Below, in pieces: positions 23,308 to 44,353 of a stretch of 64,000 bases of DNA. Below the pieces are notes generated by a model that saw only the letters and a program-made list of their open reading frames with translations, was not told the DNA's origin and did no database searches. The first letter of the stretch is position 1. Each line of letters begins with the position of its first letter. Location: assembly GCF_022846255.1 (NCBI RefSeq), contig NZ_AP025682.1, one strand, 5' to 3'. Both the position numbers and the translations under genes were made by a program. The DNA is from Escherichia coli (GTDB taxonomy: Bacteria; Pseudomonadota; Gammaproteobacteria; Enterobacterales; Enterobacteriaceae).

Positions 23308-25470
23308 TTATACCGTCTCCAGTCGGGCGTAAGCCGCCACCAGCCATTTAATACCCTGGCCCTGGAACGCCACCTGCAAACGGCTATGCTCACCGCTGCC
23401 TTCCATATTGACGATGGTGCCTTCACCAAACTTAGCGTGGCGTACGCGCTGGCCGAGCTTGTAGCCGCTGTCGTTCTCGACCATCGGCGTACCCATCCGT
23501 TGATGGCTGACCGGGCGGCTTACCGTGGCGCGCAGGCGCACCTCTTCCACACACTCTTCCGGCAACTCACCGATAAAGCGCGACGGGCGATGGTAAACCT
23601 CTTTGCCATATAGACGGCGGGTTTCCGCGTAGGTCAGCGTCAGTTTCTGCATCGCGCGGGTTACGCCAACGTAGGCCAGACGGCGTTCTTCTTCCAGACG
23701 CCCGCCTTCATCCAGCGACATCTGGCTTGGGAACATGCCCTCTTCCATACCAACGATAAACACCTGCGGGAATTCCAGACCTTTCGCCGAGTGTAGCGTC
23801 ATCAACTGCACAGCATCCTGCCAGGTATCCGCCTGCCCCTCGCCCGCTTCCAGCGCCGCATGGGAGAGGAATGCCTGCAGCGGCATTAAATCTTCGTCTT
23901 CTTCGTTGTAGCTGAACTGGCGCGTTGCCGTCACCAGTTCCTCTAAGTTTTCGATACGCGTCTGACCTTTTTCGCCCTTCTCCTGCTCGTACATGGTGCG
24001 CAGGCCGGAGTCTTTAATTACCCGGTCAGTCTGTACATGCAGCGGCATATCGGCAGTTTCCTGCGCTAAGGCGTCGATTAATTCCATAAATCGCTGTAAG
24101 GCGCTGGCAGCACGTCCGGCGAGGGCTTTTTCCTGCAACAGTTCACGGCACGCTTGCCACAGCGTTAACTGTCGATCGCGCGATGCCTGACGTACCACGT
24201 CCAGCGTCCGGTCACCAATACCCCGCGTTGGCGTATTCACCACACGCTCAAAGGCCGCGTCGTCGTTACGGTTGGCAATCAGGCGTAAATACGAGAGCGC
24301 ATCTTTGATTTCCTGGCGTTCGAAGAAGCGCATCCCGCCGTAAATACGGTACGGCATACTCGCCTGCAACAGTGCTTCTTCCAGCACGCGCGACTGGGCG
24401 TTGCTGCGGTAGAGAATGGCGCACTCGGCAAGCGCCCCACCATTGTCCTGCCAGGTTTTGATGCGGTTAACGACAAAACGCGCTTCGTCGAGTTCGTTAA
24501 AAGCGCAATAGAGGGAAATCGGCTCACCGTCCGCGCCATCGGTCCACAACTTTTTACCCAAACGCCCGTTGTTGTTTTCAATCAGGGCGTTAGCGGCGCT
24601 CAGAATGTTGCTAGTGGAGCGGTAGTTTTGCTCCAGACGAATGGTTTCGGCACCGGGGAAATCATTGAGGAAACGCTGAATATTCTCTACCTGCGCCCCA
24701 CGCCAGCCGTAGATTGACTGGTCGTCATCGCCAACGATCATCACTTTGCCAGTATCGCCCGCCAGCAGGCGGATCCACGCGTACTGAATGTTGTTGGTAT
24801 CCTGGAATTCGTCCACCAGGATGTTAGTAAAACGTTCGCGGTAGTGTTGCAGGATATGCGGCTTGTTAAGCCACAGTTCGTGGGCGCGTAGCAGTAGTTC
24901 AGCGAAGTCTACCAGGCCCGCGCGGTCGCACGCTTCCTGATACGCCTGGTACACCTTCTGCCAGGTCTGCTCCACCGGATTACCGTAGCTTTGAATATGA
25001 TGCGGACGCAGCCCTTCATCTTTCTGGCTGTTGATGTACCACATTGCCTGGCGCGGCGGCCACTGCTTCTCGTCGAGGTTCATGGCTTTGATCAGACGCT
25101 TAAGCAGGCGCAACTGGTCTTCGCTGTCGAGGATCTGGAAATCCTGCGGCAGGTTGGCGTCCATATGGTGCGCACGCAGCAGACGGTGTGCCAGCCCGTG
25201 GAAAGTGCCGACCCACATACCGCCCTGGCTGGTACCCATCAGTTGCCCGATACGATGGCGCATTTCCGCCGCCGCTTTGTTGGTAAATGTCACCGCCATA
25301 ATCGAGTACGGCGAGCAGTTTTCCACGCTCATCAGCCAGGCGATACGATGCACCAGTACGCGCGTCTTACCACTGCCCGCGCCCGCCAGCACCAAAAGGT
25401 TGCTGCGTGGCGCGGCCACCGCTTCGCGCTGTTTGTCATTAAGGCTGTCGAGCAGGTAAGAAACGTCCAT
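23308..25470 (-). CDS. uvrD: DNA helicase II
   Basis: MDVSYLLDSLNDKQREAVAAPRSNLLVLAGAGSGKTRVLVHRIAWL... 720 aa from internal ATG of ORF 23308..25656. Confidence 0.97.
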   Translation of the reverse strand: MDVSYLLDSLNDKQREAVAAPRSNLLVLAGAGSGKTRVLVHRIAWLMSVENCSPYSIMAVTFTNKAAAEMRHRIGQLMGTSQGGMWVGTFHGLAHRLLRAHHMDANLPQDFQILDSEDQLRLLKRLIKAMNLDEKQWPPRQAMWYINSQKDEGLRPHHIQSYGNPVEQTWQKVYQAYQEACDRAGLVDFAELLLRAHELWLNKPHILQHYRERFTNILVDEFQDTNNIQYAWIRLLAGDTGKVMIVGDDDQSIYGWRGAQVENIQRFLNDFPGAETIRLEQNYRSTSNILSAANALIENNNGRLGKKLWTDGADGEPISLYCAFNELDEARFVVNRIKTWQDNGGALAECAILYRSNAQSRVLEEALLQASMPYRIYGGMRFFERQEIKDALSYLRLIANRNDDAAFERVVNTPTRGIGDRTLDVVRQASRDRQLTLWQACRELLQEKALAGRAASALQRFMELIDALAQETADMPLHVQTDRVIKDSGLRTMYEQEKGEKGQTRIENLEELVTATRQFSYNEEDEDLMPLQAFLSHAALEAGEGQADTWQDAVQLMTLHSAKGLEFPQVFIVGMEEGMFPSQMSLDEGGRLEEERRLAYVGVTRAMQKLTLTYAETRRLYGKEVYHRPSRFIGELPEECVEEVRLRATVSRPVSHQRMGTPMVENDSGYKLGQRVRHAKFGEGTIVNMEGSGEHSRLQVAFQGQGIKWLVAAYARLETV

Positions 25471-25553
25471 TGGCACCGCCGCGTAAAAATAGGTTGGGCG
25501 GAGAAGCGCAACGCCCTCCGCCAAAAAGCTGGGTATATATACAGATTTGCTGA

Positions 25554-26270
25554 TTATATCAGCGAGGTCAGAGATGCCAACCGGGAAATTTCCAGATGCG
25601 GGAGTAAACGGCTGTCCCAGGTTTGCATCAGATCGCCATTTTCCGGTCTGATCCAACAGGCCTGCATTCCGCTTCGAATTGCCCCACCCACGTCAGTGGT
25701 GAGATCGTCCCCAACATGTAAGATCTTGCCGATCGGCACGTTGAGTTTTTCCGCCGCCAGGAAGTACATATCGCTGAACGGTTTTGAGCGCCCGTGCGGG
25801 CCAGCACGCAGCACAAACTCAAAATAATCCCCCAAACCAAACAGCTCCGGCTGGGCGTTACCGTTGGTGATCGCCACCAGCGGCCATTTCTTCGCCAGCT
25901 GTTTTAAGGTGTCGTGCGTTTGCTGCGGAACGTCGATCCGGCTACGCCATTTGGCAAAGTTGATCATTGCCGCGTGTGCGCCTGCACTGGCTTCTTCTGC
26001 GCTCAGCCCGGCGTCGAGCATCGCTTGTTCTATTGAGCGAAAACGCCAGCGCGTCACATCATGATAAATCTCGGGTTCCGCTTCCCGTACCGCCTGACGC
26101 AGACGTTGCAGATCTTCATTCTGGAAGCTGCGCAGCGCCGGATGGTAATTTTGCACAAAGGTAAGCGCCTCCTGCTCAGTGCGCAAAATCACCGGACGGT
26201 TATCGTAAAGGGTATCATCCAGGTCAAAGGTGAGCGCCGAGATGCGCCCCAAAGGCCGGTAAAAACGCAT
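25554..26270 (-). CDS. yigB: HAD-family phosphatase YigB
   Basis: 238-aa HAD hydrolase ([12 protein letters not shown] motif). Confidence 0.9.
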
Positions 26271-27166
26271 TATTTCCCCCGTTTGGCGCGTGGATGCGCC
26301 GCATCGTACACCGAGGCAAGGTGTTGAAAATCAAGATGAGTATAGATTTGCGTGGTAGAAAGGTTGGCATGACCCAGCAGCTCCTGTACACCACGAAGAT
26401 CACCGCTCGACTCCAGCATATGCGTAGCGAACGAGTGACGTAATTTATGCGGGTGAACGTGATTATTCAGCCCTTGTTTGATGCCCCATTCGGCAAAGCG
26501 TTTCTGCACATTACGCGCGGAGATACGCTTGCCCAGTTTCGACAGAAAAAGCGCGTCGTCTTCGCTACCAAACAGGTCGCGCAAATCAAGCCAGTGCTCA
26601 ATCCACGCCACAGCGTTGCGACCAATCGGCAGGCGGCGCTCTTTGCTGCCTTTCCCCATCACCCACACTTCGCCGGACTCCAGGTCGAGGTGTTTGATAT
26701 CGAGCCCCACCAGTTCGGAAAGACGCAGACCCGCACCGTACATTACTTCCAGCATTGCCCGATCGCGCACGGCGAGGGGATCGTTGATATCAATATCCAG
26801 CAGCCGATTTATATCATCGACGTCGATATTTTTCGGCAGATGACGCGGCGCTTTCGGTGCCGAAACACCTTTCGCCGGGTTAGCTTTGAGTTCGTTCTGG
26901 CTGACCAGCCAGTCAAAAAAGCTACGTAGCGCAGAAAGCCGTAACGCCAGACTTGCTGCTCCCAGCCCTTTACGGCGACTGCGTACAGCAAAATTGCGTA
27001 CCATCGTCACATCACATTGCTGCCAGCTTTGCAGGCCGTTTTCGCTGGCAAAATGGATGATCGCCTCAAGCTGTCGCTGGTAGTTAAGCAGGGTTATCGG
27101 GCTAAGCTGGCGCTCCACACTCAGATAACGTAGGTAGCGTTCTACATCGGTGTGTAAATCGGTCAT
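26270..27166 (-). CDS. xerC: site-specific tyrosine recombinase XerC
   Basis: 298-aa product, [33 protein letters not shown]...; catalytic R-H-R-Y context. Confidence 0.95.
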
Positions 27167-27870
27167 ACGCGTTCAATCCAACGCGCCAGAAGCTCCGGCA
27201 ACATCAGTGCAATTTCATGAAGTAACTGCGTTCCCTGCCCTTGTTGATAGTGACTGGCATCGCGACTGGTAAACAGCACAACACCCAAATCAGCATCGCT
27301 TCCCAGCATCGACATCGCCACCGATCCCACCGCTTTCGCTTCCGGTAGCACCACCAGAAGCTCCGGTCCGTTAAGCGGCCCCAGATAGTGCTGTTCCTGC
27401 CCCAGACGCTGAATACGCAGCGGTTCGAAAGACTGACGGCTTAATGCCAGATGAGTGTAGTTCGACGGCGCACCTAAGCGCCAGCGATCCGGAAACAGGC
27501 GCAGACTCGCACCTGCCAGGCCGAGATCGCGCGCCCAGCGGTGAAAGCGCATCAGCATATCATCGAGACTGCTGGCGGCGGTGAGACTGCGCTGCAGGTA
27601 GAGTAGACGATAAAACAGGCCTTCGTTGGCGATTGCCTGTTCCATCAACAGCGCCATGTTCTCTTCCAGAACATGAATATGATTACGTGCGCGGGCCATG
27701 TGCCACTCGACCAACGAAACGGTGCCGCGTACCGGATGCGGCACACGTATCGCTTCTACTGCGCGCGCATTGCGGATAAAAAACTCAGGATTTTTAATCA
27801 GATAATCGACAACCGCCCGGTCATCAAGCTCCGTGAGTGTTTCCTGCAGTTCTTCCCCTGGTTGCTTCAT
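27163..27870 (-). CDS. yigA: DUF484 protein YigA
   Basis: 235-aa ORF overlapping dapF and xerC by 4 nt each (operon dapF-yigA-xerC-yigB). Confidence 0.85.
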
Positions 27871-28691
27871 AGATGAATAAATCCGTCGTAGACATGTACC
27901 GCCGGGCCAGTCATATATAACGGGTGACCCGGACCTTTCCAGGCGATATCAAGACGACCGCCGGGGAGTTCCACGCGTACTTCTTCGGCCAGCAAACCTT
28001 GCTGAATCCCTACCGCCACCGCCGCACATGCGCCGCTGCCGCAGGCCTGGGTTTCTCCTGCCCCACGCTCATAAACGCGTAAACGAATATGCTCGCGCTT
28101 AACCACTTGCATAAAACCGATATTGGCGCGCTCCGGGAAACGTTCGTGGCTTTCCAGAACAGGACCAAGCGTTTCTACCGCCGCGGTATCGACATCATCG
28201 ACCTGAATCACGCAATGCGGATTTCCCATCGACACCACGCCGCATAAGATTGTCTGCTCGGCGGCGCGCATAATATAGGTCTTTTCCGCTTTGTTAGCGC
28301 GAAACGGCACGGCAGAAGGTTCGAAGTTGGGTTCGCCCATATTTACGCGGACCAGATCATCATCGGTGACGGTAAGAACCATCCGCCCGTTGGCGGTGCT
28401 GACGCGGATATCGCGCTTATTGGTCAGCCCTTTCAGACGCACAAAACGGGCAAAGCAGCGTGCTCCGTTGCCACACTGCGCCACTTCACTGCCATCAGCA
28501 TTGAAAATGCGATAGTGAAAATCCAGTTCAGGATCATACGGCGGCTCAACCACCAGCAGTTGGTCAAACCCTACCCCCAGGTGCCGATCAGCCAGGCGAC
28601 GAATCAGCTCCGGTGAAAAAAAGACATTCTGCGTTACCGCGTCGACGACCATAAAATCGTTGCCAAGGCCATGCATTTTCGAGAACTGCAT
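27867..28691 (-). CDS. dapF: diaminopimelate epimerase
   Basis: [21 protein letters not shown]... 274 aa from second ATG of ORF. Confidence 0.95.
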
Positions 28692-28727
28692 CATTTACTC
28701 CAATCACGCGGGTACAGAAACTGACTT

Positions 28728-28931
28728 TTAGTAATTCACCTGGGATGGACCATCGCCAGTGGCGCGGTCGTTTTTATCCGGCACCGTGGATTGCGTTTGC
28801 GTCTCTACCGGTTTGGTCGGCGGCGGTGCGTTTTTATCTGCAGGCGGGAAATAGAGCGGACCTTTCAGACCGCAGCCCGTCAGGCTGAAGAGAGTAAGTA
28901 ATACAGTGAGTGCCTTAAACACGTTTTTCAT
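28728..28931 (-). CDS. yifL: small lipoprotein YifL (LptM)
   Basis: 67 aa with lipobox LTGC and Pro-rich tail. Confidence 0.85.
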   Translation of the reverse strand: MKNVFKALTVLLTLFSLTGCGLKGPLYFPPADKNAPPPTKPVETQTQSTVPDKNDRATGDGPSQVNY

Positions 28932-29119
28932 TATGGATTGCCTGTAAAGTTCATCGCTTTCTGCTTTCTATCATCGCAGGAGAAGGCGTAAAAGCAAGCG
29001 TTTAGCGACTCTTTATGAAGTCTGAAAAGTGAGGAAATGCTGCGAGTATAACGCTTACTCGTGGCGATTTATGTTTTGCTGGTAGTTTCGTGATCGGCAC
29101 CTCGCGCCAGGATGGCTTT

Positions 29120-31147
29120 ATGCACTATCGCAATGTGGTTTGTTTGTTGGCTTGTTCGTTGTTTTTATCGTCGGCATGGGGATGTCGGCTTTCCGCGCCT
29201 GAACATAATATTTACCAGAAACAGGGAAAAGGCGTGGTGTACCTGCGCCCTTATCAGAAAACAAATCTTTCTCTACCTGACGTGAAATACAAGAGATTGC
29301 GTCGTTTACCCAATTTATTAATAGACCCAACAACACTAGACGAATGGGATAAAGAACCTCCTCTGACCGATCTGACAACCGACTACCTCTATGAAGGCGC
29401 ACAAGCCTGGTATCCTCATTATTCCTGGCATAGCGATGGTCGCTATATCCTCTACGCAGGTGAAGTTGTGCAAAACCCTCCCGGCACTCCTCCCGTCGAT
29501 GTCGCCTCGTTCAAGGCATGGGGTGATTTTGCCGCAGATAAACACAGTCTCTATTTCGAAGGCAAGCGCACCGATGACAATGGCGGGGGAAATAGCTTAG
29601 ATATCAAAACACTGCATCAGGTGAAATTCCGTTTCCCCTGGAAACCTGACGTTCTGGGGCTGATATTACGTGACGCTAATTTCTTATATGTTGATGGACA
29701 TCGCCTCGCTGACCCCGAGAGTTTTCGCGTGCTGGCGCAAAAATCCTGGGATCAGCGAGGAAAGTTTTCCACCACGTTTAACCCCTGCGTTGCCGTACCA
29801 TTTGGCCCCTGGGATACATTAGCCCGTACACACACGGAAATGATGATCAACGGCGAACAGCTTGATGCCGACCCGGAGACATTTACTGTCGTACGCTGGA
29901 TGCCCGGTTCGTTATTAACCTGGCGAGATAAAAGCGGCCTGCACCGGAAGGTGCTGAATCAGGGAAATCTGGACAAAGATAGGGCAAATAGCTGCGCGGC
30001 GTTCAATTTGCAGGAACACTCTGTTTCATGGCGCAAAGGGCCTGAATGCCAGCAAGAAGTCCTACCCGGCCTCGATCCAGAACAATTTCACCCTCTTAGT
30101 AATACCGTCGCGCAGTATCAGGACAAACTGTACACCATCAAAAAAACAGAATTTGGCGAAAACAGGCTGGATATCGTCACGCTGGATAATCCTGCTTTGG
30201 TGATTAATAAACGCTTTAACGCGGGAAGAACTCACGGCTATTTACTGACCAAATTACAAGTTCGTGGTGAAGAAGAAGATGGTCTCCAGGTATTCGAGTC
30301 TTCCGGGCCGCTTATCCTGATGGATTATCGTGTTCCTGACGAGCGTGAGGCTCACCTTAGCGATAGCTCCCATTACAAGAAATGGTATGCACACGACGAT
30401 CGTTATGTTTACGCATTCGATGGCTCACAGCTTTGGCGCTACCCAACACCCAATACCAGGGCCGTGCGGGTGAACTGGAAAACCGGACATTCAGGATATG
30501 GCTATTGGGCAGACTACCGTAGTGGAGAGTTAGACGGCAGACTTCTTGAGGATGGTGCGTTTATTCCAACGGGAATCCCCTATAACTCATCCGTTAACAT
30601 TGCTCAATATTCTGCTGGCGAGAGCGCTTTTCTCGTCGGCGAAACCGATGTTAGCTGGCGTAAGCTTCGCTCTACAGACCAGCAATGGAGTCAATGGGGG
30701 AAACTCCGCGATATTGACCCAAAAGCATTTCACCCCATCACCGATCGTATCGCGCAGTACAAAAATACTCTGTACATTGCGAAATTGTCTCCTTTTGGTG
30801 AAGACATCCTGGAAACCCTAACGCTCGACTCTTCTGCACCTTTCCTGAACCAACGCATTAACGCAGGGAAAGACCATGGCTACTTTATGCGCTCTTCCCG
30901 ATTACGCGACGATATTCAAATTTTTGCCATTGATGGACCATTGAAGACCACCGAACGCTTCGCTTATGACAATCGCTATGTTTATACCTGGATCGGTAGC
31001 CAACTTTATCGAACCGCGTCGCCCTGTCCGGCAAAGACACGTAATCTGGATCAGAACATGTTTTCATCCAATGATGACATCATCATCCTGAAGACGGATG
31101 AAGAGTGCCGCAAAGCACCAGACATTGAGCAAACTTTGAAGCCCTGA
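29120..31147 (+). CDS. DKNYY-repeat family secreted protein
   Basis: ORF 29090..31147 begins at GTG; ATG at 29120 has an AGGA Shine-Dalgarno 7 nt upstream; signal-peptide-like N-terminus; repeated DK.(S/T)LY / D.RYVY motifs and a duplicated internal module. Confidence 0.7.
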   Translation: MHYRNVVCLLACSLFLSSAWGCRLSAPEHNIYQKQGKGVVYLRPYQKTNLSLPDVKYKRLRRLPNLLIDPTTLDEWDKEPPLTDLTTDYLYEGAQAWYPHYSWHSDGRYILYAGEVVQNPPGTPPVDVASFKAWGDFAADKHSLYFEGKRTDDNGGGNSLDIKTLHQVKFRFPWKPDVLGLILRDANFLYVDGHRLADPESFRVLAQKSWDQRGKFSTTFNPCVAVPFGPWDTLARTHTEMMINGEQLDADPETFTVVRWMPGSLLTWRDKSGLHRKVLNQGNLDKDRANSCAAFNLQEHSVSWRKGPECQQEVLPGLDPEQFHPLSNTVAQYQDKLYTIKKTEFGENRLDIVTLDNPALVINKRFNAGRTHGYLLTKLQVRGEEEDGLQVFESSGPLILMDYRVPDEREAHLSDSSHYKKWYAHDDRYVYAFDGSQLWRYPTPNTRAVRVNWKTGHSGYGYWADYRSGELDGRLLEDGAFIPTGIPYNSSVNIAQYSAGESAFLVGETDVSWRKLRSTDQQWSQWGKLRDIDPKAFHPITDRIAQYKNTLYIAKLSPFGEDILETLTLDSSAPFLNQRINAGKDHGYFMRSSRLRDDIQIFAIDGPLKTTERFAYDNRYVYTWIGSQLYRTASPCPAKTRNLDQNMFSSNDDIIILKTDEECRKAPDIEQTLKP

Positions 31148-31194
31148 CACCATGCCGCTATACTGCCGCCATCACTTAAAAACAGGATACAACA

Positions 31195-31515
31195 ATGAAC
31201 GACAGTGAATTTCATCGCCTGGCTGATCAACTGTGGCTGACCATTGAAGAACATCTGGACGACTGGGATGGCGACAGCGATATCGACTGTGAAATCAACG
31301 GCGGTGTACTAACCATTACCTTTGAGAACGGCAGCAAAATCATTATCAACCGCCAGGAACCACTGCACCAGGTGTGGCTGGCAACCAAACAGGGTGGCTA
31401 CCATTTTGATCTGAAAGGCGACGAGTGGATTTGCGATCGTAGCGGTGAAACCTTCTGGGATTTGCTGGAACAGGCGGCGACGCAGCAGGCGGGTGAAACA
31501 GTTAGTTTCCGCTAA
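31195..31515 (+). CDS. cyaY: frataxin homolog CyaY
   Basis: 106-aa product [33 protein letters not shown]... matching CyaY. Confidence 0.95.
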
Positions 31516-31554
31516 GATTGCATGCCGGATAAGCCTCGCTTTCCGGCACGTTCA

Positions 31555-34101
31555 TCACGAAAAATACTGCTGCAACAGCGGCGCGTCATGCTCCTGATTG
31601 GCAGGTGGCATGTTACCGATAGATTTGGTGCGAAACGGAATCACCTGTTCACGACCATCAACCTTCACAATCTGATAGAACTGCGGCAGGTTGAAGTTGA
31701 TGAAGCTTGAGCCGTAGGTGAAACGGTCGTGCGAAGACGAGTAGAAGCGACTGACGTCACGCACCAGTTCCTCTTTGCTGCCTTCGCAGTGGTGATACAC
31801 CTCAACCCGGTTGCTTTCGTCGAGAATGTAGATATTAAAGCCATTCTCGTCTTGCGTTTCTTCGAAGAAAAACTGGATGATCCCTTCGCTGGCAAAGCCG
31901 TCCACCACCGCCGGTAATTTGACGTGATTGGTTTCAACCTGCACTGACAGGCCGTGCAGTTTGTTATGCGAAATAGCGCCATAAAACTCGATGGCGTTTT
32001 CCAGTTTCTGTACCGAGACATTCAGCCGTTCGAAGAACAAGCCCCAGGTTTGACCGGAGACGCGCAGCGCCTTGAAGCGCCCGGTTTCCTGGCGGGTGCT
32101 GGAAAGACGCAGTTCAATACACTCAGAAACCAGTTGCTGCACGCGAGTACGGATTAACCCGCGCAGATGCTGGCTATAACAGAAGACTTCCACACTATCT
32201 GGCGGTGCGGCGTCCTGATGCATTTTGCCGAGAATGGTTTTCAGGGCTTCAATCATCGACTGCTCACCGTTGAAGTGCAGCGTACGCACTTCGTTCCACG
32301 AGTTGCGATACAGCAGGTCAACGCTACCCACCAGGCAATTTTGATTCTCGCCAAAGCTGAAGACATCCAGCTTACGGAAATCAAAATGCACCACCTGATT
32401 GCGGAAGGCTGCCGTCGGGTCATATTCCAGGTTAACGATAATCGCCAGATGGCGGATCTCACACGGGCTGTAGAGCGCCTTCGGTGTCGGTGCAGGTAAG
32501 CGCAGCGGGAAATGGTGCGACACGTCGGCGACCATCTCCTGCAACTTAGGCAAATCGACAATGCCGTTACCTTTAATATACAAGCGGGTGCGCGAGGTCA
32601 GCAGGCCGTTAAACCATGCCCACGCCACCAGTTTATTCAGGTAACGGTTATATTCCAGCGGCTGATGGCTGATGATCGACTCAATATTTGGCGCGCGGTT
32701 ATACAGATACCAACCTGAACGGTTAGCCCGGCCCGGCGGCACATAAATAAAGGTCAGATTCGGTTCCGAGAGATCGGGTGAAATCTGCGGGTTTACCAGC
32801 GTCACTTTACCCGGTAACGCTTCAAACGCGGCGTACAGTTTACGTGTCAGAACACCGATATCCTGCGGGCTGGCGGAAACGCTAAGGTTATTGCGACGCG
32901 CAAAGCGGATCAGATTGCGGTAGCTCTGCATCATCGCGTCGAGCAACTCGTTGTGCGCCTCACGCACCTGATCAATCTTCCAGTTAGCGCGATTATCAAG
33001 CATTGCCAGACGAGAATCGTCCCATTCCCACTCTTTCACCAACTGGCTTAACACTTCACGACGCCAGCCTACGCAGGCGCGTTCACGGCTGAGTTTTTCG
33101 CAAACTTTTAAATAGAAGCATCGGCGAACTAAATCCAGACGAGTAAAATCTTCGATCGCCGTCAGATATTCAGTGACGCGCTCCAGCATCATGCAATACG
33201 GGTCGAGACCAAACGACACTATTTCGCCGTCGTGCAAACGCTGTTTGATATCTTTCGCCAGCAGACGTGGGTTCGGGTATTCCCAGGAATAGGCTTCCAG
33301 CAGCAGTGTTTTCAGCACCGCTTTGTATGGGGAATCGATACTCTTGTAGAGCTGCCAAAGGCTGGCACCAAAGTACTCTTCAGCAGAAAGCGAGCTTAAG
33401 CCACCAAGATCCAGCCATTCATTTGGCGTCAACACGCCCTGCGCGTAAAGCGTCATCACATAGTCGTCGTAATGCTCTTCTTCGTCGCACGGCACCATAT
33501 TCCACAGAATACGCTTACCGGCGAGACGCACGGCGGTACGATAAAATTCGTCAAGCAGCAGTATATGCTGGGTGGAGCCACAATCTTCGCCCCCCAGGCT
33601 GCCGCTTTCATTATGACGGAAGCGGTTTTCATCAATCAGGAAGAAGCTGACTTCCACACCCAGCGAGGCGGCCCAGCTTTCCAGCAGACTACATTTACGT
33701 TGTAGCAACTGGCGCTCTTCGCTATCGAGCCAGGATTGATGACAGACCCAGATATCCAGGTCAGAGGAACAACTTTGCCCTACGGACGAGGTGCTGCCCA
33801 TGGTGTATACACCAGTAATTGGAAGCTCACCTTTCGGTGGGTCCTGTACTGACATTCCACGATACAGTTCAAGCTCGTTCAGGTAGTGGCGTTGAGTTTC
33901 ATCAGGCGTGTAAAGGCAAATGCCTTTGGGAACGTTACCATCAAGGTAACCCGGCATTAGCGGATGGTGATAGTGCAACAATGTCGGCAGTAGACTGTAG
34001 ACCTGTTGGAATGCAGGCCCCATAGCAGCAAGCGCGCGATCCACACGCAATTGATTTATGGCATCCAGTCTCTGTTTCAGAGTCTCAATATAGAGGTACA
34101 A
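31555..34101 (-). CDS. cyaA: adenylate cyclase (class I)
   Basis: 848-aa product matching CyaA; initiation codon at 34099-34101 reads TTG on the minus strand. Confidence 0.97.
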
Positions 34102-34487
34102 GACGTATCGCCTGATTTGCTACCCGTCATGACTGTGATTCCGCCAACATCAACGGTAACACGCGGCATTCGGGATATTTCGTATGTCAAAGGTAACCGT
34201 TACCACTTTTCGCGCCTGGTTTTTTTAGTTTCACGACGAAAAAATGGTCTAAAACGTGATCAATTTAACACCTTGCTGATTGACCGTAAAGAAAGATGCG
34301 CTACATACAAGTGTAGCACCGTTTATTCTCTGTAAATTCCTTATTACGAAGGCTCAAAGCGCCTGTCAGGATCCACTGCCAGACCTCATTTTACGGTTTG
34401 CGCAGGCGTCTACGTTTCACCACAACACTGACATCGCTCTGGCAAGGATGTTAGGATGGACCACGGATGATAATGACGGTAACAAGC

Positions 34488-35429
34488 ATGTTAGACAATG
34501 TTTTAAGAATTGCCACACGCCAAAGCCCACTTGCACTCTGGCAGGCACACTATGTCAAAGACAAGTTGATGGCGAGCCATCCGGGCCTGGTCGTTGAACT
34601 GGTACCGATGGTGACGCGCGGCGATGTGATTCTTGATACGCCGCTGGCGAAAGTAGGCGGAAAAGGCTTATTTGTGAAAGAGCTGGAAGTCGCGCTCCTC
34701 GAAAATCGCGCCGATATCGCCGTACATTCAATGAAAGATGTGCCGGTTGAATTCCCGCAAGGTCTGGGGCTGGTCACCATTTGCAAGCGCGAAGATCCCC
34801 GCGATGCCTTTGTATCCAACACCTATGACAGTCTGGATGCGTTACCGGCAGGCAGTATCGTCGGGACGTCCAGTTTACGTCGCCAGTGCCAACTGGCTGA
34901 ACGCCGCCCGGATCTGATTATCCGCTCCCTGCGCGGCAACGTCGGCACTCGTCTGAGCAAACTGGATAACGGCGAATATGATGCCATCATTCTTGCCGTA
35001 GCCGGACTAAAACGTTTAGGTCTGGAGTCCCGCATTCGCGCCGCGTTGCCACCCGAGATTTCTCTTCCGGCGGTAGGGCAAGGTGCGGTGGGCATTGAAT
35101 GCCGCCTTGATGATGCACGCACTCGCGAGCTGCTCGCCGCGCTGAATCACCACGAAACTGCACTGCGCGTTACCGCCGAACGCGCCATGAATACCCGTCT
35201 CGAAGGCGGATGTCAGGTGCCAATTGGTAGCTACGCCGAGCTTATTGATGGCGAAATCTGGCTGCGTGCGTTGGTTGGCGCGCCGGACGGTTCGCAGATT
35301 ATTCGCGGTGAACGCCGCGGTGCGCCGCAAGATGCCGAACAAATGGGGATTTCGCTGGCAGAAGAGCTACTGAATAACGGCGCGCGCGAGATCCTCGCTG
35401 AAGTCTATAACGGAGACGCCCCGGCATGA
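34488..35429 (+). CDS. hemC: porphobilinogen deaminase (hydroxymethylbilane synthase)
   Basis: [20 protein letters not shown]... 313 aa from internal ATG of ORF 34467..35429. Confidence 0.95.
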
Positions 35430-36166
35430 GTATCCTGGTCACCCGTCCGTCTCCCGCAGGAGAAGAGTTAGTGAGCCGTCTGCGCACACTGGGGCAGGTG
35501 GCCTGGCATTTTCCGCTGATTGAGTTTTCTCCGGGTCGACAATTACCGCAACTTGCTGATCAACTGGCAGCGCTGGGAGAGAGCGATCTGTTGTTTGCCC
35601 TCTCGCAACACGCGGTTGCTTTTGCCCAATCACAGCTGCATCAGCAAGATCGTAAATGGCCCCGACTACCTACTTATTTCGCCATTGGACGCACCACCGC
35701 GCTGGCACTACATACCGTAAGCGGACAGAAGATTCTCTACCCGCAGGATCGGGAAATCAGCGAAGTCTTGCTACAATTACCTGAATTACAAAATATTGCG
35801 GGCAAACGTGCGCTGATATTACGTGGCAATGGCGGTCGTGAGCTAATTAGGGATTCCCTGACGGCGCGCGGTGCTGAGGTCACTTTTTGTGAATGTTATC
35901 AACGATGCGCAATCCATTACGATGGTGCAGAAGAAGCGATGCGCTGGCAATCCCGCGAGGTGACGACGGTCGTTGTTACCAGCGGTGAAATGTTGCAGCA
36001 ACTCTGGTCGCTGATCCCACAATGGTATCGTGAGCACTGGTTACTACGCTGTCGACTATTAGTCGTCAGTGAGCGTTTGGCGAAACTCGCCCGGGAACTG
36101 GGCTGGCAAGACATTAAGGTCGCCGATAACGCTGATAACGATGCGCTTTTACGGGCATTACAATAA
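35426..36166 (+). CDS. hemD: uroporphyrinogen-III synthase
   Basis: 246 aa; start overlaps hemC stop (ATGA). Confidence 0.95.
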
Positions 36167-36187
36167 CTCTCATAACAGGAAGCCATA

Positions 36188-37423
36188 ATGACGGAACAAG
36201 AAAAAACCTCCGCCGTGGTTGAAGAGACCAGGGAGGCCGTGGACACCACGTCACAACCTGTCGCAACAGAAAAAAAGAGTAAGAACAATACCGCATTGAT
36301 TCTCAGCGCGGTGGCTATCGCTATTGCTCTGGCGGCGGGCGTCGGTTTGTATGGCTGGGGTAAACAACAGGCCGTCAATCAGACTGCCACCAGCGATGCC
36401 CTGGCTAACCAACTTACGGCACTGCAAAAAGCCCAGGAGAGCCAAAAAGCCGAGCTGGAAGGCATTATCAAGCAACAAGCTGTACAGCTTGAGCAGGCGA
36501 ATCGTCAGCAAGAAACGCTGGCAAAACAGCTGGATGAAGTCCAACAAAAGGTCGCCACCATTTCCGGCAGCGATGCTAAAACCTGGCTGCTGGCCCAGGC
36601 CGATTTTCTGGTGAAACTCGCCGGACGGAAGCTGTGGAGCGATCAGGACGTCACGACCGCTGCAGCGTTGCTGAAAAGTGCAGACGCCAGCCTGGCGGAT
36701 ATGAATGACCCGAGTCTGATTACCGTTCGCCGGGCAATTACCGATGATATCGCCAGCCTTTCTGCGGTATCGCAGGTGGATTATGACGGTATCATCCTTA
36801 AGCTTAATCAGCTTTCAAATCAGGTAGATAATCTGCGTCTGGCCGATAATGACAGCGATGGTTCGCCGATGGATTCCGACGGTGAAGAGCTTTCCAGTTC
36901 CATCAGCGAATGGCGTATCAATCTGCAAAAAAGCTGGCAGAACTTTATGGACAACTTCATTACGATTCGCCGTCGTGATGACACCGCCGTACCGCTGTTA
37001 GCGCCAAATCAGGATATCTATCTGCGCGAAAATATTCGCTCTCGCCTGCTGGTCGCAGCACAAGCTGTACCGCGTCACCAGGAAGAGACTTATCGCCAAG
37101 CGCTGGAGAACGTCTCCACCTGGGTACGTGCTTACTACGATACTGATGATGCCACCACCAAAGCGTTCCTCGACGAGGTGGACCAGTTAAGCCAGCAAAA
37201 TATCTCGATGGATCTTCCGGAAACCCTGCAAAGCCAGGCGATGCTGGAAAAATTGATGCAGACCCGCGTGCGTAACCTGCTGGCACAACCGGCAGCAGGG
37301 ACAACGGAAGCTAAACCTGCACCTGCACCTGCACCTGCACCTGCACCTGCACCTGCACCTGCACCTGCACCTGCACCTGCACCGCAAGCTGATGCTCCGG
37401 CAGCCGCGCCGCAAGGAGAATAA
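36188..37423 (+). CDS. hemX: HemX (uroporphyrinogen-III C-methyltransferase-like membrane protein)
   Basis: 411-aa product with a single N-terminal TM segment, coiled-coil region and a C-terminal (PA)n repeat. Confidence 0.9.
37316..37381 (+). repeat. hexanucleotide tandem repeat (CCTGCA)x11 encoding (Pro-Ala)11 within hemX
   Basis: 11 perfect tandem copies counted directly in the sequence. Confidence 0.95.
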
Positions 37424-37425
37424 CC

Positions 37426-38622
37426 ATGCTAAAAGTGTTATTGCTCTTTGTGTTGCTGATTGCGGGGATCGTGGTTGGCCCGATGATTGCCGGCCATCAG
37501 GGTTACGTGCTGATCCAGACCGACAACTACAATATTGAAACTAGCGTCACGGGCCTCGCGATTATTTTGATTCTGGCGATGGTAGTGCTGTTTGCCATTG
37601 AGTGGCTACTGCGGCGAATCTTCCGCACAGGCGCGCACACCCGTGGGTGGTTTGTCGGACGTAAGCGTCGCCGTGCACGTAAGCAGACCGAACAGGCGCT
37701 GCTGAAACTGGCGGAAGGCGATTATCAGCAAGTTGAAAAGTTGATGGCGAAAAATGCCGATCACGCTGAACAACCGGTGGTGAACTATCTACTGGCAGCC
37801 GAAGCCGCGCAACAACGTGGTGATGAAGCACGCGCCAACCAACATCTGGAACGCGCAGCGGAGCTGGCCGGCAATGACACCATTCCGGTAGAAATCACCC
37901 GTGTACGTCTGCAACTGGCCCGTAATGAAAACCATGCAGCACGTCACGGCGTGGATAAGCTGCTGGAAGTTACGCCACGCCATCCGGAAGTATTACGTCT
38001 GGCGGAACAGGCGTATATCCGCACTGGTGCATGGAGTTCGCTGCTGGATATCATCCCATCAATGGCGAAAGCCCATGTTGGTGATGAAGAACATCGTGCA
38101 ATGCTGGAACAACAGGCATGGATTGGCCTGATGGATCAGGCGCGTGCCGATAACGGTAGTGAAGGTTTGCGTAACTGGTGGAAAAACCAAAGCCGGAAAA
38201 CGCGTCATCAGGTGGCCTTGCAGGTGGCAATGGCGGAACATCTTATTGAGTGTGACGATCATGATACTGCCCAGCAAATTATCATCGATGGCCTGAAACG
38301 CCAGTATGACGATCGCCTGCTGCTGCCGATCCCGCGTCTGAAAACCAATAACCCGGAACAGCTGGAAAAAGTGCTGCGCCAACAGATCAAAAACGTGGGC
38401 GATCGCCCGCTGTTGTGGAGCACACTGGGTCAGTCGCTGATGAAACACGGAGAATGGCAGGAAGCATCGCTCGCCTTCCGCGCAGCGCTGAAACAACGTC
38501 CGGACGCCTACGATTACGCATGGCTTGCCGACGCGCTGGACAGACTGCACAAGCCGGAAGAAGCCGCAGCGATGCGTCGCGACGGTTTGATGTTAACGTT
38601 GCAGAACAACCCGCCACAGTAG
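37426..38622 (+). CDS. hemY: HemY (TPR-containing heme biosynthesis-associated membrane protein)
   Basis: 398-aa product matching HemY; begins 3 nt after hemX stop. Confidence 0.95.
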   Translation: MLKVLLLFVLLIAGIVVGPMIAGHQGYVLIQTDNYNIETSVTGLAIILILAMVVLFAIEWLLRRIFRTGAHTRGWFVGRKRRRARKQTEQALLKLAEGDYQQVEKLMAKNADHAEQPVVNYLLAAEAAQQRGDEARANQHLERAAELAGNDTIPVEITRVRLQLARNENHAARHGVDKLLEVTPRHPEVLRLAEQAYIRTGAWSSLLDIIPSMAKAHVGDEEHRAMLEQQAWIGLMDQARADNGSEGLRNWWKNQSRKTRHQVALQVAMAEHLIECDDHDTAQQIIIDGLKRQYDDRLLLPIPRLKTNNPEQLEKVLRQQIKNVGDRPLLWSTLGQSLMKHGEWQEASLAFRAALKQRPDAYDYAWLADALDRLHKPEEAAAMRRDGLMLTLQNNPPQ

Positions 38623-38632
38623 CTCTTTCTCA

Positions 38633-38654
38633 CCCGGAGGCAAGCACCTCCGGG
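38633..38654 (+). terminator. hairpin downstream of hemY
   Basis: CCCGGAGG caagca CCTCCGGG, 8-bp stem, followed by a pyrimidine-rich tract. Confidence 0.4.
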
Positions 38655-38670
38655 GCCTTTCTGATATATA

Positions 38671-38876
38671 AAAAAACGCCTGCTCTTATTACGGAGCAGG
38701 CGTTAAAACAGGTCTGTATGACAACAAGTGGGTGCTTCACTCAACGTTGTGTCCATGGTGTCTGATGAGGCATAAGCGACATCTGTCAGTGGACGATAAG
38801 CACCGTAAACGGCTCTGCGTCATTCCGGAGTTTATGAGGCACTAAGGCGAACATAAGAGATGGAATGAGCATCTAC
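38671..38876 (-). ncRNA. glmZ: GlmZ small regulatory RNA (SraJ/RyiA)
   Basis: minus-strand sequence GTAGATGCTCATTCCATCTCTTATG ... AACGCCTGCTCCGTAATAAGAGCAGGCGTTTTTT matches GlmZ as I recall it; terminator hairpin plus U-run at the 3' end; lies in the hemY-aslA intergenic region. Confidence 0.8.
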
Positions 38877-39300
38877 TCGTTTATTATGCCACAGAGAACC
38901 GGGAAATAACATCCCTTAACACTTGTTATGAGATAATTCTGTAATCCTCTTTGCTTCCTGAGTAATAACTTCCTGAGTGAATATTTCTCCTGCGCACAAT
39001 TCTACACATATATATAATGAATAATAAAAGTCATTCAATTAATAACATATATATTAATTGCCGTTAAAACTAAAAACAGCATCAATAATCAACGCGATAT
39101 AACATCACCGCCTTACATATCACCTGCGCCAGAGGTAGGATTGCAAACGCTCTCCTGATTTTCCAATTCATTTTCTGGATAAATAAATAATTTATTTTTA
39201 TCACTATTATTTATGCAATCATCCTGTCAGGGAGAGGGATCTCAATTATCAATGCTTAATTACGTCATCATTTTGACGACATGAAACCGGAGCATTTTGC

Positions 39301-40956
39301 ATGGAATTTTCGTTTTCACCCAAACTTCTTGTTGTTGCTGTCGCCGCAGCTCTTCCTCTCATAGCCAGCGCAGCAGATACCCCGTCAACCGCCACCGCAC
39401 GCAAAGGCTTTGCCGGATACGATCACCCAAACCAGTATCTGGTTAAACCGGCGACCACTATTGCCGACAACATGATGCCGGTGATGCAGCATCCTGCACA
39501 AGACAAAGAAACCCAGCAGAAACTGGCGGAACTTGAGAAAAAAACCGGTAAGAAACCGAACGTGGTTGTTTTCTTGCTGGATGATGTGGGCTGGATGGAC
39601 GTTGGCTTTAACGGCGGCGGCGTGGCGGTGGGTAACCCTACACCAGATATCGACGCCGTTGCCAGCCAGGGGCTGATTTTAACTTCGGCGTATTCTCAAC
39701 CGAGTTCTTCCCCAACCCGCGCCACGATTCTCACCGGACAATACTCCATCCACCACGGCATTCTGATGCCGCCAATGTACGGGCAACCGGGCGGTCTGCA
39801 AGGGTTAACCACGCTGCCGCAGTTGCTGCACGATCAGGGCTACGTCACTCAGGCCATCGGGAAATGGCATATGGGGGAAAACAAAGAGTCGCAGCCGCAG
39901 AACGTTGGCTTTGATGATTTCCGCGGCTTTAACTCGGTATCCGATATGTATACCGAATGGCGTGATGTTCACGTCAACCCGGAAGTCGCCCTGAGCCCGG
40001 ATCGTTCTGAATACATCCAAAAACTGCCGTTCAGCAAAGATGACGTTCATGCCGTGCGCGGCGGTGAACAGGAAGCCATTGCCGACATTACGCCGAAATA
40101 TATGGAAGACCTGGATCAACGCTGGATGGAATATGGCGTTAAGTTCCTCGACAAGATGGCGAAGAGTGATAAGCCTTTCTTCCTCTATTACGGCACTCGC
40201 GGCTGTCACTTCGATAACTACCCAAATGCGAAATATGCGGGTAGCTCTCCGGCGCGCACCTCTTACGGCGACTGCATGGTGGAGATGAACGATATCTTCG
40301 CCAATCTGTATAAAGCACTGGAGAAAAACGGTCAGCTTGATAACACGCTGATTGTGTTCACCTCTGATAACGGTCCGGAAGCCGAAGTTCCGCCGCACGG
40401 TCGCACGCCGTTCCGCGGTGCGAAAGGTTCTACATGGGAAGGCGGCGTTCGTGTGCCAACCTTCGTTTACTGGAAAGGCATGATCCAACCGCGTAAATCT
40501 GACGGCATTGTCGATCTGGCGGATCTCTTCCCTACGGCACTGGATCTGGCGGGGCACCCTGGGGCGAAAGTAGCGAATTTAGTACCGAAAACCACCTTTA
40601 TCGATGGTGTGGACCAGACATCTTTCTTCCTGGGAACAAATGGTCAGTCTAACCGTAAGGCCGAGCACTACTTCCTCAACGGCAAACTTTCTGCTGTGCG
40701 TATGGATGAGTTCAAGTATCACGTCCTGATCCAGCAACCGTACGCGTATACCCAGAGCGGGTATCAGGGTGGATTCACCGGCACAGTAATGCAAACGGCG
40801 GGATCGTCGGTGTTTAACCTGTACACCGATCCGCAGGAAAGCGACTCCATCGGCGTGCGCCATATCCCAATGGGTGTACCGCTACAGACCGAAATGCACG
40901 CGTATATGGAGATCCTGAAAAAATATCCACCACGCGCGCAGATTAAATCTGATTAA
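39301..40956 (+). CDS. aslA: arylsulfatase
   Basis: 551-aa product with signal peptide and sulfatase motif region ([13 protein letters not shown]). Confidence 0.9.
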
Positions 40957-40984
40957 GCCGGCGCTATCGCTGAGATCTACCTTT

Positions 40985-41010
40985 GCCGGATGCGATGCTG
41001 ACGCATCCGG
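40985..41010. repeat. REP-like palindrome downstream of aslA
   Basis: GCCGGATGCG atgctga CGCATCCGGC. Confidence 0.55.
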
Positions 41011-41023
41011 CAATCAACCGCAG

Positions 41024-41048
41024 GCGGCCACAAAATGGCCGCTTTTTT
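41024..41048 (+). terminator. rho-independent terminator of aslA
   Basis: GCGGCCA caaaa TGGCCGC followed by TTTTTT. Confidence 0.6.
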
Positions 41049-42282
41049 ACTTATTCACCACCAGCAAATGCGCCTGCATAATGTCGCTGGCCGGACGACC
41101 GTGCGCCAGTAAATCAACCATTGCTTTAAGATATGGCGGTAGATGGCGGAAATAACGCTGATACCCGGCACACAAATAATTCAGCCCGGGTTTGCCGCTG
41201 GCATCGAGCATAAAGCGGTGTTTCGGGCAGCCTCCCCAGCACGCTTTTAACACGTTGCAACTGCGACACTGTGCCGGTAACTGCTTGAATTTATCTTCAC
41301 CAAATGCCTGCTGTTGCGGGGAATCAATCATTTCTGCAATCATCTGCTGAAGCATATTCCCTAGTCGATACTGCGGATAAACATAGTGATCGCAGGCATA
41401 AACGTCACCGTTGTGCTCAACAATCACCGAGCGCCCACAGGTTGGCTGATGATGGCAAACCGCGCCCGGTGCGCCGACAAAATTGGCGAACGCCCATTCG
41501 ATATTCATTACGAAAATCTTGCCGACGTCGCGCTTAATCCAGTGGTCGAAAATCGCCACCAGAAACTCACCGAACTCTTGCGGGCACACCGACCATTCCG
41601 TCAGTTCGCCCTGAATATCGCCGGGAGCATGTAGCTTAAGTCCAGCATGAGCAGCCGTTTCATCAGCCAGGCGCTCGACCACCGGAATAAACTGGATGAA
41701 CTCAACACCTGCATCACACAGAAAATCATAGACTTGCAAAGGTTGTAACGCACTGGTGCGATTGACGCAGACCAGCACGTTATAGTCGACATGATGTTTT
41801 TGCAGGAGCGTCAGAGCACGCATCACCAGCTTATGCGTTGGTCTGCCACCTTTGGTCACGCGATATTGATTGTGGATCTCAGCCGGACCATCCAGCGATA
41901 ACCCTACAAGAAAATGATTTTCTGCCAGAAATGCACACCATTCGTCATCGAGCAGCACGCCGTTAGTCTGGAAGCTATTACTTATCTTCCTGCCAGCACC
42001 ATATTTCGCCTGTAGCGCCACGGCACGGCGGTAAAAATCCAGCCCGAGTAACGTTGGTTCGCCGCCCTGCCAGGTAAAAGCCACTTCGTTTTGGGTTTCG
42101 CTGGCAGCGATATAGTGACGGACATACGCTTCCAGCGTGTCATCGTCCATATGCGTGACTGGCTTTTCGTGGTAAAGGGATTGTTTTTCGAGATAAAAAC
42201 AGTAGTCACAGTTCAGATTACAATCAGAACCGCTCGGTTTCGCCATCACATGAAAAGCACGCGTTGGAACCTGTTGCTGCAT
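41047..42282 (-). CDS. aslB: anaerobic sulfatase-maturating enzyme homolog (radical SAM)
   Basis: CxxxCxxC radical-SAM motif (CNLNCDYCFY); 411 aa from internal ATG of ORF 41047..42312. Confidence 0.9.
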   Translation of the reverse strand: MQQQVPTRAFHVMAKPSGSDCNLNCDYCFYLEKQSLYHEKPVTHMDDDTLEAYVRHYIAASETQNEVAFTWQGGEPTLLGLDFYRRAVALQAKYGAGRKISNSFQTNGVLLDDEWCAFLAENHFLVGLSLDGPAEIHNQYRVTKGGRPTHKLVMRALTLLQKHHVDYNVLVCVNRTSALQPLQVYDFLCDAGVEFIQFIPVVERLADETAAHAGLKLHAPGDIQGELTEWSVCPQEFGEFLVAIFDHWIKRDVGKIFVMNIEWAFANFVGAPGAVCHHQPTCGRSVIVEHNGDVYACDHYVYPQYRLGNMLQQMIAEMIDSPQQQAFGEDKFKQLPAQCRSCNVLKACWGGCPKHRFMLDASGKPGLNYLCAGYQRYFRHLPPYLKAMVDLLAHGRPASDIMQAHLLVVNK

Positions 42283-42395
42283 GGTCGCTCCTTGCCTGAA
42301 GTCATCCTTCAATAAGTTAAGGGCGAAATCATACCGTGGCGCAATACGTTATTACGGGCGTTTATTGCGAAGGGAAAGTGACGAAATGCACAGAA

Positions 42396-42788: not shown

Positions 42789-42865
<77 letters not shown>

Positions 42866-42886
42866 TTAGCGCCGTTGCGGGGGTGG

Positions 42887-42935
42887 ATAATACGGACTTC
42901 CCACCCCTCTGTCTAGTCCCTTTTTAAATAAATTG
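42887..42935 (-). promoter_or_regulatory. candidate sigma70 stable-RNA promoter of the tRNA operon
   Basis: minus strand: -35 TAGACA, 17-bp spacer, -10 TATTAT, GC-rich discriminator CCACCCCC, A/T-rich upstream tract. Confidence 0.5.
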
Positions 42936-42967
42936 CGCGTTTGGTTACGGTTTGTGCGTTTTGCTGC

Positions 42968-44353
42968 TTATTCCTCCAGTTTATGCGCTTTACCGTGGCG
43001 ATTAAGCCCAAAAACTTTATAAATCGCCGTCACCACCAGCATAAAGATGATGCCGACAAACAGCGACATACGCGTATCTTCATTAAAGTACATGCCGATC
43101 AAAACGCAAATCAGGAATGCCATTGTTACGTAGTTGGCCCAAGGGAACAGGATTGAGCGGAACGGATGGCTGGCAATTGCTGCTTTATGCGCACGACGAA
43201 AACGCAGCTGGCTTATCAATATCACAAACCATGGCACCATCCCCGGAAGCACGCTGGCACTGTAGACGTAAACAAACACACGCTGCGGATTGGGAATGAT
43301 GTAGTTCAGGCATGAGCCAATTAGCAGAATAGCAATAGATACTGCCACACCCGCAACCGGTACGCCGTGACGGGAAACTTTCGCCATTGCCGCCGGTAAC
43401 TGACGGTTTTTCGCCAGTGCATAGAGCATACGTCCGCAACTGTACATGCCGCTGTTACAGCCAGAGAGCGCAGCCGTCAGCACCACAAAGTTGATAATGC
43501 CCGCCGCTGCGGTAATGCCGATTTTGGCGAAAGTCAGTACGAACGGGCTACCGTTGCTGCCTATTTCATTCCACGGGAAGATAGTAACGATAACGAAAAT
43601 CGCGCCAACGTAGAAAATCAGGATTCGCCACAGCACCTTGCCTACGGCACTGCGCAGCGTCACCTGCGGATTCTTCGCTTCACCGGCAGTAATGCCAATC
43701 AGCTCCACGCCCTGGTAGGACGCCACCACAATACACAATGCGGTCAGGAACCCTTTCCAGCCACCAGCAAAGAAACCGCCATGCTCTGTGAGATTGCTAA
43801 AACCAATCGACTGCCCGCCATTGCCAAAGCCAAAGAAAATCACACCCAGGCCAATGACAATCATCACGATAATCGTGGTGACTTTGATCATCGCGAACCA
43901 GAACTCGATTTCGCCGTACAACCTCACCGCAGCCAGATTCGCCAACGCCACCAGCGCCACCGCGATCAATGCGGGTATCCACTGCGCCATCTCCGGGAAC
44001 CAGAACTGGACATAAACGCCAATGGCGGTGATTTCTGAGATCCCCACCGCCATCCACATAAACCAGTAAGACCAGGCGGTGAGATAACCAAAGAACGGGC
44101 TCATATAACGATGCGCGTAAACGGCGAACGAACCGGTAACCGGTTCGAGGAACAACATTTCGCCCATTGAACGCATGATGAAAAAGACGAACAGCCCGGC
44201 GATGATATAGGCCAACAATACGGATGGCCCGGCCCATTTCAGGGTACTGGCGGCCCCCATAAACAGGCCGACGCCAATGGTGCCCCCCAGGGCGATGAGT
44301 TCGATATGTCGAGCTTCCAGCCCACGCTGTAGCTCTGGTTTGTTATCTGCCAT
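42968..44353 (-). CDS. yifK: APC-family amino acid permease YifK
   Basis: 461-aa 12-TM amino-acid permease matching YifK. Confidence 0.9.

Follow-up and report, generated by a model that had tools for sequence, protein, structure and literature searches.

Anatomy, conservation and promoter class of pArgX, the sigma-70 promoter upstream of argX-hisR-leuT-proM, a tRNA operon in Escherichia coli

The 64-kb stretch of E. coli DNA analyzed here (hereafter the window) holds only four tRNA genes, which follow one another on the minus strand just downstream of a protein-coding gene, and the short interval between that gene and the first tRNA raises the question of which promoter serves the operon and to what class of promoter it belongs. 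An earlier note, made from the raw sequence, had described positions 42887-42935 as a textbook stable-RNA promoter. We conclude with near certainty that 42887-42935 is pArgX, a sigma-70 promoter formerly called pArgT, driving argX-hisR-leuT-proM. This promoter is already known; work on it goes back to the 1980s, and the assignment accordingly adds little new biology. The genes and the terminator of the locus are as follows.

42968 to 44353, minus strand: thrP (yifK) coding sequence of 461 codons, from the ORF list and the RefSeq annotation, with its TAA stop codon at 42970 to 42968
42865 to 42789, minus strand: argX, tRNA-Arg(CCG), from ARAGORN, Rfam and the K-12 annotation
42730 to 42655, minus strand: hisR, tRNA-His(GUG), from ARAGORN, Rfam and the K-12 annotation
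42634 to 42548, minus strand: leuT, tRNA-Leu(CAG), from ARAGORN, Rfam and the K-12 annotation
42505 to 42429, minus strand: proM, tRNA-Pro(UGG), from ARAGORN, Rfam and the K-12 annotation
42423 to 42392, minus strand: intrinsic terminator from the terminator scan, with a 9-bp stem (six G-C pairs), a 4-nt loop and a T-run

A RefSeq record that is 100% identical here calls the coding gene thrP, the new name of yifK, and the gene order given by RefSeq is thrP, tRNA-Arg, tRNA-His, tRNA-Leu, tRNA-Pro, aslB. The reverse primer that Kime et al. (2014) used for the full precursor sits on the terminator hairpin (PMC3985628). Our terminator scan found no terminator in the yifK-argX interval, and likewise none is reported to separate yifK from the tRNA operon in the Salmonella orthologue (PMC3879156). 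A search of the intergenic region against Rfam at a permissive E-value gave no family match; the four tRNAs alone pass, and the sub-threshold hits on the terminator and tRNAs are noise.

Read on the minus strand from 42938 to 42866, the promoter region has the layout GCGCAATTTATTTAAAAAGGGAC-TAGACA-GAGGGGTGGGAAGTCCG-TATTAT-CCACCCCC-GCAACGGCGCTAA, and the 5' end of tRNA-Arg(CCG), GCGCCCGTAGC..., comes next. Its parts, from upstream to downstream, are these.

42962 to 42939, minus strand: candidate curved UAS with A-tracts (AAAA at 42962 to 42959, AAA at 42953 to 42951 and AAA at 42942 to 42940)
42938 to 42917, minus strand: UP-like element GCGCAATTTATTTAAAAAGGGA, with a distal subsite at about 42936 to 42926 and the proximal subsite AAAAAGGGA at 42925 to 42917
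42934 to 42921, minus strand: A/T-rich tract AATTTATTTAAAAA, upstream of the -35
42915 to 42910, minus strand: -35 hexamer TAGACA, five of six bases matching TTGACA
42909 to 42893, minus strand: spacer GAGGGGTGGGAAGTCCG, 17 bp, fixed in length and freely variable in its 5' part
42892 to 42887, minus strand: -10 hexamer TATTAT, five of six bases matching TATAAT
42886 to 42879, minus strand: G+C-rich (C-rich) discriminator CCACCCCC, 88% G+C
42877 to 42879, minus strand: transcription start, from published K-12 positions mapped to the window, the best single estimate being the G at 42878
42878 to 42866, minus strand: 5' leader GCAACGGCGCTAA, 13 nt, removed by RNase P

The -35 TAGACA, the 17-bp spacer and the -10 TATTAT all lie on the minus strand exactly where the earlier note had put them, and together they score 10 of 12 hexamer matches in a consensus scan. 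The GC-rich discriminator of that note is indeed present as CCACCCCC, and is exactly the stretch it named if +1 is 42878; its 88% G+C stands beside 71% in the spacer, 32% in the UP-like element and 52% in the window. An A/T-rich UP-like tract had also been claimed, and was found: of the 14 positions that the full UP consensus specifies, 42938 to 42917 agrees at 10, placing it in the top 0.2% of the window's 22-mers, and the proximal subsite AAAAAGGGA agrees with AAAAAARNR at 8 of 9 (subsite consensus sequences as quoted in PMC4132738). The distance of about 20 nt to tRNA-Arg proves to be 21 nt between the last base of the -10 and the first base of tRNA-Arg(CCG) at 42865. As for the position just downstream of the yifK stop, the thrP/yifK TAA ends 52 nt before the -35. 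The tRNA genes are directly driven by a promoter in which a G+C-rich discriminator separates the -10 from +1, as is characteristic of the discriminator class of stable-RNA promoters.

A scan of both strands over the whole 64-kb window turned up just two sites that match the hexamers at 10 or more of 12 positions. At the 9/12 level the number of matches equals that in shuffled sequence (2 found, 2.0 expected). The chance that a 10/12 site falls in the slot of about 36 nt before the first tRNA (defined as a -10 within 5–40 nt of that tRNA, on the correct strand) is about 6e-4 from the observed density of such sites and about 2e-3 from the density in Markov-1 simulations of the window. Apart from one inside yifK at 43698, the operon and its surroundings contain no further promoter-like site scoring 9/12 or better.

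Two observations on the window as a whole may be recorded here. The Markov-1 simulations yielded 7.5 ± 3.1 sites at 10/12, so that the real sequence, with 2, is depleted of strong sigma-70-like sites, a deficit consistent with selection against spurious strong promoters. The second site of at least 10/12 is TTGGCA-16-TATAAT, with 11 of 12 matches, at 25529 to 25580 on the minus strand (-35 at 25580); after it come a LexA-type box, CTGTATATATACCCAG, and then the uvrD ORF, beginning MDVSYLLDSLNDKQREAV... with its ATG at 25470. This site is the SOS-regulated uvrD promoter region. Since the two strong matches of the window lie directly upstream of the tRNA operon and of uvrD, both are placed where a promoter is needed.

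For the comparative scan, a 44-nt stretch of tRNA-Arg(CCG) was searched against species-representative genomes, giving 120 loci, none of them from Salmonella. The main set of orthologues was defined by a tRNA-His within 520 nt downstream, with upstream DNA ignored in the choice, and comprises 42 distinct upstream sequences from genera that include Citrobacter, Enterobacter, Klebsiella, Serratia, Yersinia, Erwinia and Pantoea, as well as Photorhabdus, Xenorhabdus, Providencia, Morganella and Edwardsiella. Conservation by column was tabulated for 47 orthologues picked by the in-register leader GCAACGGCG, and the nine columns of that leader are therefore invariant by construction.

T[A/G]GACA, a spacer of exactly 17 bp and TAnTAT are found in all 42 orthologues of the main set, and in 40 of them the end of the -10 lies 21 nt from the tRNA. 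Within this rigid frame the spacer drifts, with 34% pairwise identity at positions 2-10, and all four bases occur at the third position of the -10. The -35 columns are 98-100% conserved amongst the 47 orthologues except at position 2 (42914), where the main set has A in 26 sequences, G in 16 and the consensus T in none. Also conserved amongst the 47 are a CCG directly before the -10 (42895 to 42893), which is not a TGn extended -10, and an A at 42899 (91%). The C at 42885, the second base past the -10, is present in 47 of 47, as is the CC at 42880 to 42879 in this leader-picked set; further conserved blocks are the A-tract at 42925 to 42921, a GCAC just before the -35 and a G after it. Discriminators in the main set average 76% G+C and 68% C. 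Near-consensus hexamers 16-18 bp apart, with hexamers and spacer length conserved and spacer sequence free to drift, are the pattern expected of a functional sigma-70 promoter and not of another type of element.

Beyond the Enterobacterales, T[A/G]GACA followed by a 17–18-bp spacer and a -10-like hexamer is kept in Aeromonas (loci L018, L036, L037, L061, L065, L086, L109 and L120), Marinobacter (L019, L074 and L112), Aliidiomarina and others (L006, L073 and L119), and also in Zobellella. These distant gammaproteobacterial loci have a G+C-rich discriminator (for example GCGCCCCG), a different leader and no downstream tRNA-His. Because the unusual -35 variant is retained outside the Enterobacterales where no tRNA-His follows, it appears to be older than the four-tRNA operon arrangement.

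All functional evidence for this locus is transferred from K-12, whose promoter sequence is identical, and from Salmonella. Every base from the yifK stop through argX agrees with E. coli K-12 MG1655, the sole mismatch in a 241-nt alignment lying inside yifK about 25 nt before the stop (synonymous-region), and K-12 pArgX has the same gene order and terminator; the two are one element carried by different E. coli strains. Over the surrounding 1 kb the sequence is 100% identical to that of ATCC 11775 and of many B2-type isolates from humans, and the strain of the window is nearer to these than to K-12. Of 5426 complete E. coli genomes, 5425 have this region, and in 5405 of the 5425 the 102-nt intergenic stretch shows 99% identity or more. 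At a larger scale, the stretch of the window from the uvrD promoter to the end of proM falls about 774 bp short of its length in ATCC 11775 (NZ_CP033092.2), which locates an indel relative to NZ_CP033092.2 somewhere in 25600 to 42380 and marks the window as coming from a different strain.

Where does transcription start? The earlier note had proposed that its call be compared with the K-12 argX promoter and that a mapped start far from the predicted position would count against it; the published start maps to 42877-42879, near the prediction. Three readings of the literature can be carried over. The cloned fragment -265..+135 (SmaI/HindIII primers) corresponds to 43142 to 42743 of the window, exactly 400 bp, which puts +1 at 42877 (C), and the footprinting text of the same paper gives the initiating nucleotides as C, CG and CGA, which implies a transcript CGCAA… starting from 42879 (C) (PMC5137449). 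A second paper puts the start at g(-13), counted from mature argX, that is 42878 (G) (PMC8643618, citing PMC5137449). The literature on the pArgX start is thus not fully self-consistent, differing by up to 2 nt, and all three readings for this identical K-12 sequence fall 8-10 nt past the -10, sigma-70 starts typically lying 6-9 nt past it. No 5' end of the argX primary transcript is reported in the tRNA-processing papers PMC7049720 and PMC2190699.

With these data in hand, two readings that would deny the hexamers their role can be weighed. Were the hexamers a chance match, the conserved blocks would have to be a protein-binding site or an RNA element of the yifK 3' end. The abundance of 9/12-level matches, no lower in shuffled sequence than in the window, lends this some color, but just two matches in 128 kb of strand reach 10/12; what is fixed amongst orthologues (hexamers and spacer length) and what is free (spacer sequence and the third position of the -10) is the sigma-70 pattern; the intergenic region matches no Rfam family; and there is direct biochemistry on the identical K-12 sequence (PMC5137449). 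On rarity, conservation pattern and K-12 biochemistry we rejected the chance match and leave it practically no credence. It could also be supposed that the tRNA operon is fed mainly by read-through from the yifK/thrP promoter, with the hexamers upstream of argX minor or inactive. No terminator separates yifK from argX, and in Salmonella a 2.0-kb yifK RNA does reach the tRNA operon, though only with a promoter-up mutation in the yifK promoter (PMC3879156). From the wild-type promoter, however, yifK mRNA was undetectable in Salmonella, and most transcription of the tRNA operon came from a strong promoter just upstream of argX (PMC3879156); moreover, a pArgX fragment of -40..+5 is active in vitro (PMC5137449), and the hexamers are under strong purifying selection. 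Given the undetectable wild-type yifK mRNA and the strong argX promoter, we rejected read-through as the main source of these tRNAs and hold it to be highly improbable. The preferred reading is a sigma-70 promoter at 42887-42935.

We turn now to the class of this promoter. The earlier note's claim of a stringently controlled stable-RNA promoter is borne out by the identical K-12 pArgX, which is inhibited by ppGpp in vitro and under stringent control in vivo (PMC5137449, Łyżeń et al. 2016), shows a DksA requirement in vivo, and remains regulated by ppGpp and DksA as a minimal -40..+5 fragment (PMC5137449). Growth-phase dependence has been reported as well (PMC5137449), and growth-rate regulation is attributed, by secondary citation, to Rowley et al. 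1993. The promoter called the hisR promoter in Salmonella enterica is the orthologous promoter, driving the same four-tRNA operon downstream of yifK. According to PMC8422995, sensitivity to supercoiling parallels stringent control there, and changing C/G to A/T in the discriminator shifted the response to supercoiling and abolished the sensitivity (Figueroa-Bossi 1998, as summarised there). The C-rich discriminator of pArgX is likely to act as the sensor for supercoiling and for ppGpp/DksA.

Whether such a promoter also works as the rRNA promoters do is a separate matter. The classic mechanism of rrnB P1 has a short-lived open complex that is destabilised by ppGpp/DksA and sensitive to the initiating NTP. 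Much in pArgX recalls it: an A/T-rich UP element lying in register with that of rrnB P1 and identical to it at 10 of 22 positions, a G+C-rich discriminator with a C two bases past the -10 in 47 of 47 orthologues (42885), a start 8-10 nt past the -10, and inhibition by ppGpp together with DksA. A C at that position is reported, in work credited to Haugen et al. 2006, to bind sigma region 1.2 poorly at rRNA promoters, and by analogy the invariant C at 42885 would correspond to this position of non-optimal binding. The stringent sensitivity of the Salmonella orthologue, too, follows its discriminator (PMC8422995). Against this stand the reported kinetics. Open complexes at pArgX show hardly any decay over 3 h, whereas those at rrnB P1, in identical conditions that included ppGpp and DksA, decayed within minutes; DksA alone stimulates transcription from pArgX; and inhibition by ppGpp with DksA acts after open-complex formation, at the step of productive-complex formation, with dead-end complexes (PMC5137449). 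The same authors find the behavior to resemble lambda pR, which likewise forms stable open complexes, is inhibited by ppGpp and is stimulated by DksA (PMC5137449); pArgX differs from pR in that DksA and ppGpp together inhibit it strongly and in that pR drives an mRNA whereas pArgX drives stable RNA.

The spacer speaks the same way. In rrn P1 promoters it has a sub-optimal length of 16 bp, whereas pArgX combines its -35 TAGACA with the optimum of 17 bp, a length kept by all 42 orthologues. This invariant spacer fits a stable complex better than it fits the rrn P1 design. We therefore regard an rrnB P1 mechanism at this promoter as unlikely. Because of the 17-bp spacer and of open complexes that in the literature are stable for hours, pArgX works as a stringent promoter outside the rrn P1 kinetic class. 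The word textbook thus holds for a stringent stable-RNA promoter and fails for rrnB P1 likeness (17-bp spacer, stable open complexes, stimulation by DksA alone).

Our picture of how pArgX works is accordingly that of a stable-complex stringent promoter. On the evidence of promoter anatomy and published in-vitro work, RNA polymerase holoenzyme with sigma-70 would recognize and bind TAGACA-17 bp-TATTAT, aided by the A/T-rich UP-like element through the alpha C-terminal domains and probably also by curved DNA further upstream. Initiation 8-10 nt past the -10, at 42877-42879, would give the 13-nt leader; transcription would stop at the hairpin 42423 to 42402, and the four tRNAs would be cut out by RNase P and RNase E. 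The C-rich discriminator would make both the opening of the strands and productive initiation respond to negative supercoiling and to ppGpp with DksA, and because it confers these sensitivities the operon would be shut off in starvation and be highly active in fast growth.

The upstream tract deserves separate comment. The A-tract of the UP-like element is 87-100% conserved and the AAA blocks upstream of it 74-98% (both amongst the 47 orthologues), and the proximal subsite that most orthologues have, AAAAAAGCA, matches the subsite consensus at 9 of 9. From this tract we infer a contact with the alpha C-terminal domain. The centers of successive A/T-tracts, UP tracts included, are spaced 8.5, 11, 9 and 9 bp apart, roughly in helical phase, and such phased A-tracts may bend the DNA. 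Bossi and Smith (1984) are said to have described curved DNA, with a conformational promoter mutation, at the Salmonella orthologue. Judged from its letters, the A/T-tract spacing would fit intrinsically bent DNA, that report and the published UAS. The UAS was important for pArgX activity in the work of Hsu et al. 1991, as cited in PMC5137449.

The tRNA promoter tyrT makes a useful comparison at this point. Like pArgX it drives tRNA from behind a G+C-rich discriminator, which in tyrT confers sensitivity to supercoiling and to stringent control. The UAS of tyrT contains well-defined Fis sites, whereas upstream of argX no convincing Fis core is seen: the scan of the upstream region for a Fis core found one loose G-N4-W5-N4-C, at 42977 to 42963, where about 0.3 are expected per strand for this very degenerate motif, a yield no higher than background, and no match to a stricter core.

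Finally, the leader between promoter and tRNA is itself conserved. The argX leader GCAACGGCGCUAA (42878 to 42866) is near-identical in 40 of the 42 orthologues defined by gene order. The nascent 28-mer (42878 to 42851) has a predicted folding energy of -11.3 kcal/mol, which 1 of 200 shuffles equals; the predicted hairpin pairs the leader with the 5' acceptor strand of argX as GGCGC-UAA-GCGCC plus outer pairs. Folding of the whole leader with argX did not differ from shuffles (z = −0.53), and its MFE structure is without the cloverleaf. The adaptive mutations g(-5)a (42870) and g(-8)a (42873), obtained by selection in E. coli deficient in trmD (PMC8643618), weaken the predicted hairpin to -6.4 and -7.1 kcal/mol, respectively; in a natural C-to-U variant a G-U pair preserves it, at -9.9 kcal/mol. 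On this modeling, it is possible, if doubtful, that the hairpin transiently hides the RNase P site and so throttles or times the maturation of the only tRNA-Arg(CCG). Conservation of the leader could alternatively reflect an initial-transcribed-sequence effect on promoter escape, direct recognition by RNase P, or a requirement of RNase E direct entry; for the last of these, deletion of the leader lowers E1 cleavage about 8-fold, in a study in which the T7 precursor carried a leader of equivalent length (Kime et al. 2014, PMC3985628).

Taken together, this check validates a promoter call that had been made from raw sequence alone, and it cautions that "textbook stringent promoter" is not to be read as "rrnB P1-like" in the case of pArgX. 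Across the Enterobacterales, the footprint of pArgX highlights conserved positions that depart from consensus: the second position of the -35, the CCG before the -10 and the C two bases past it.
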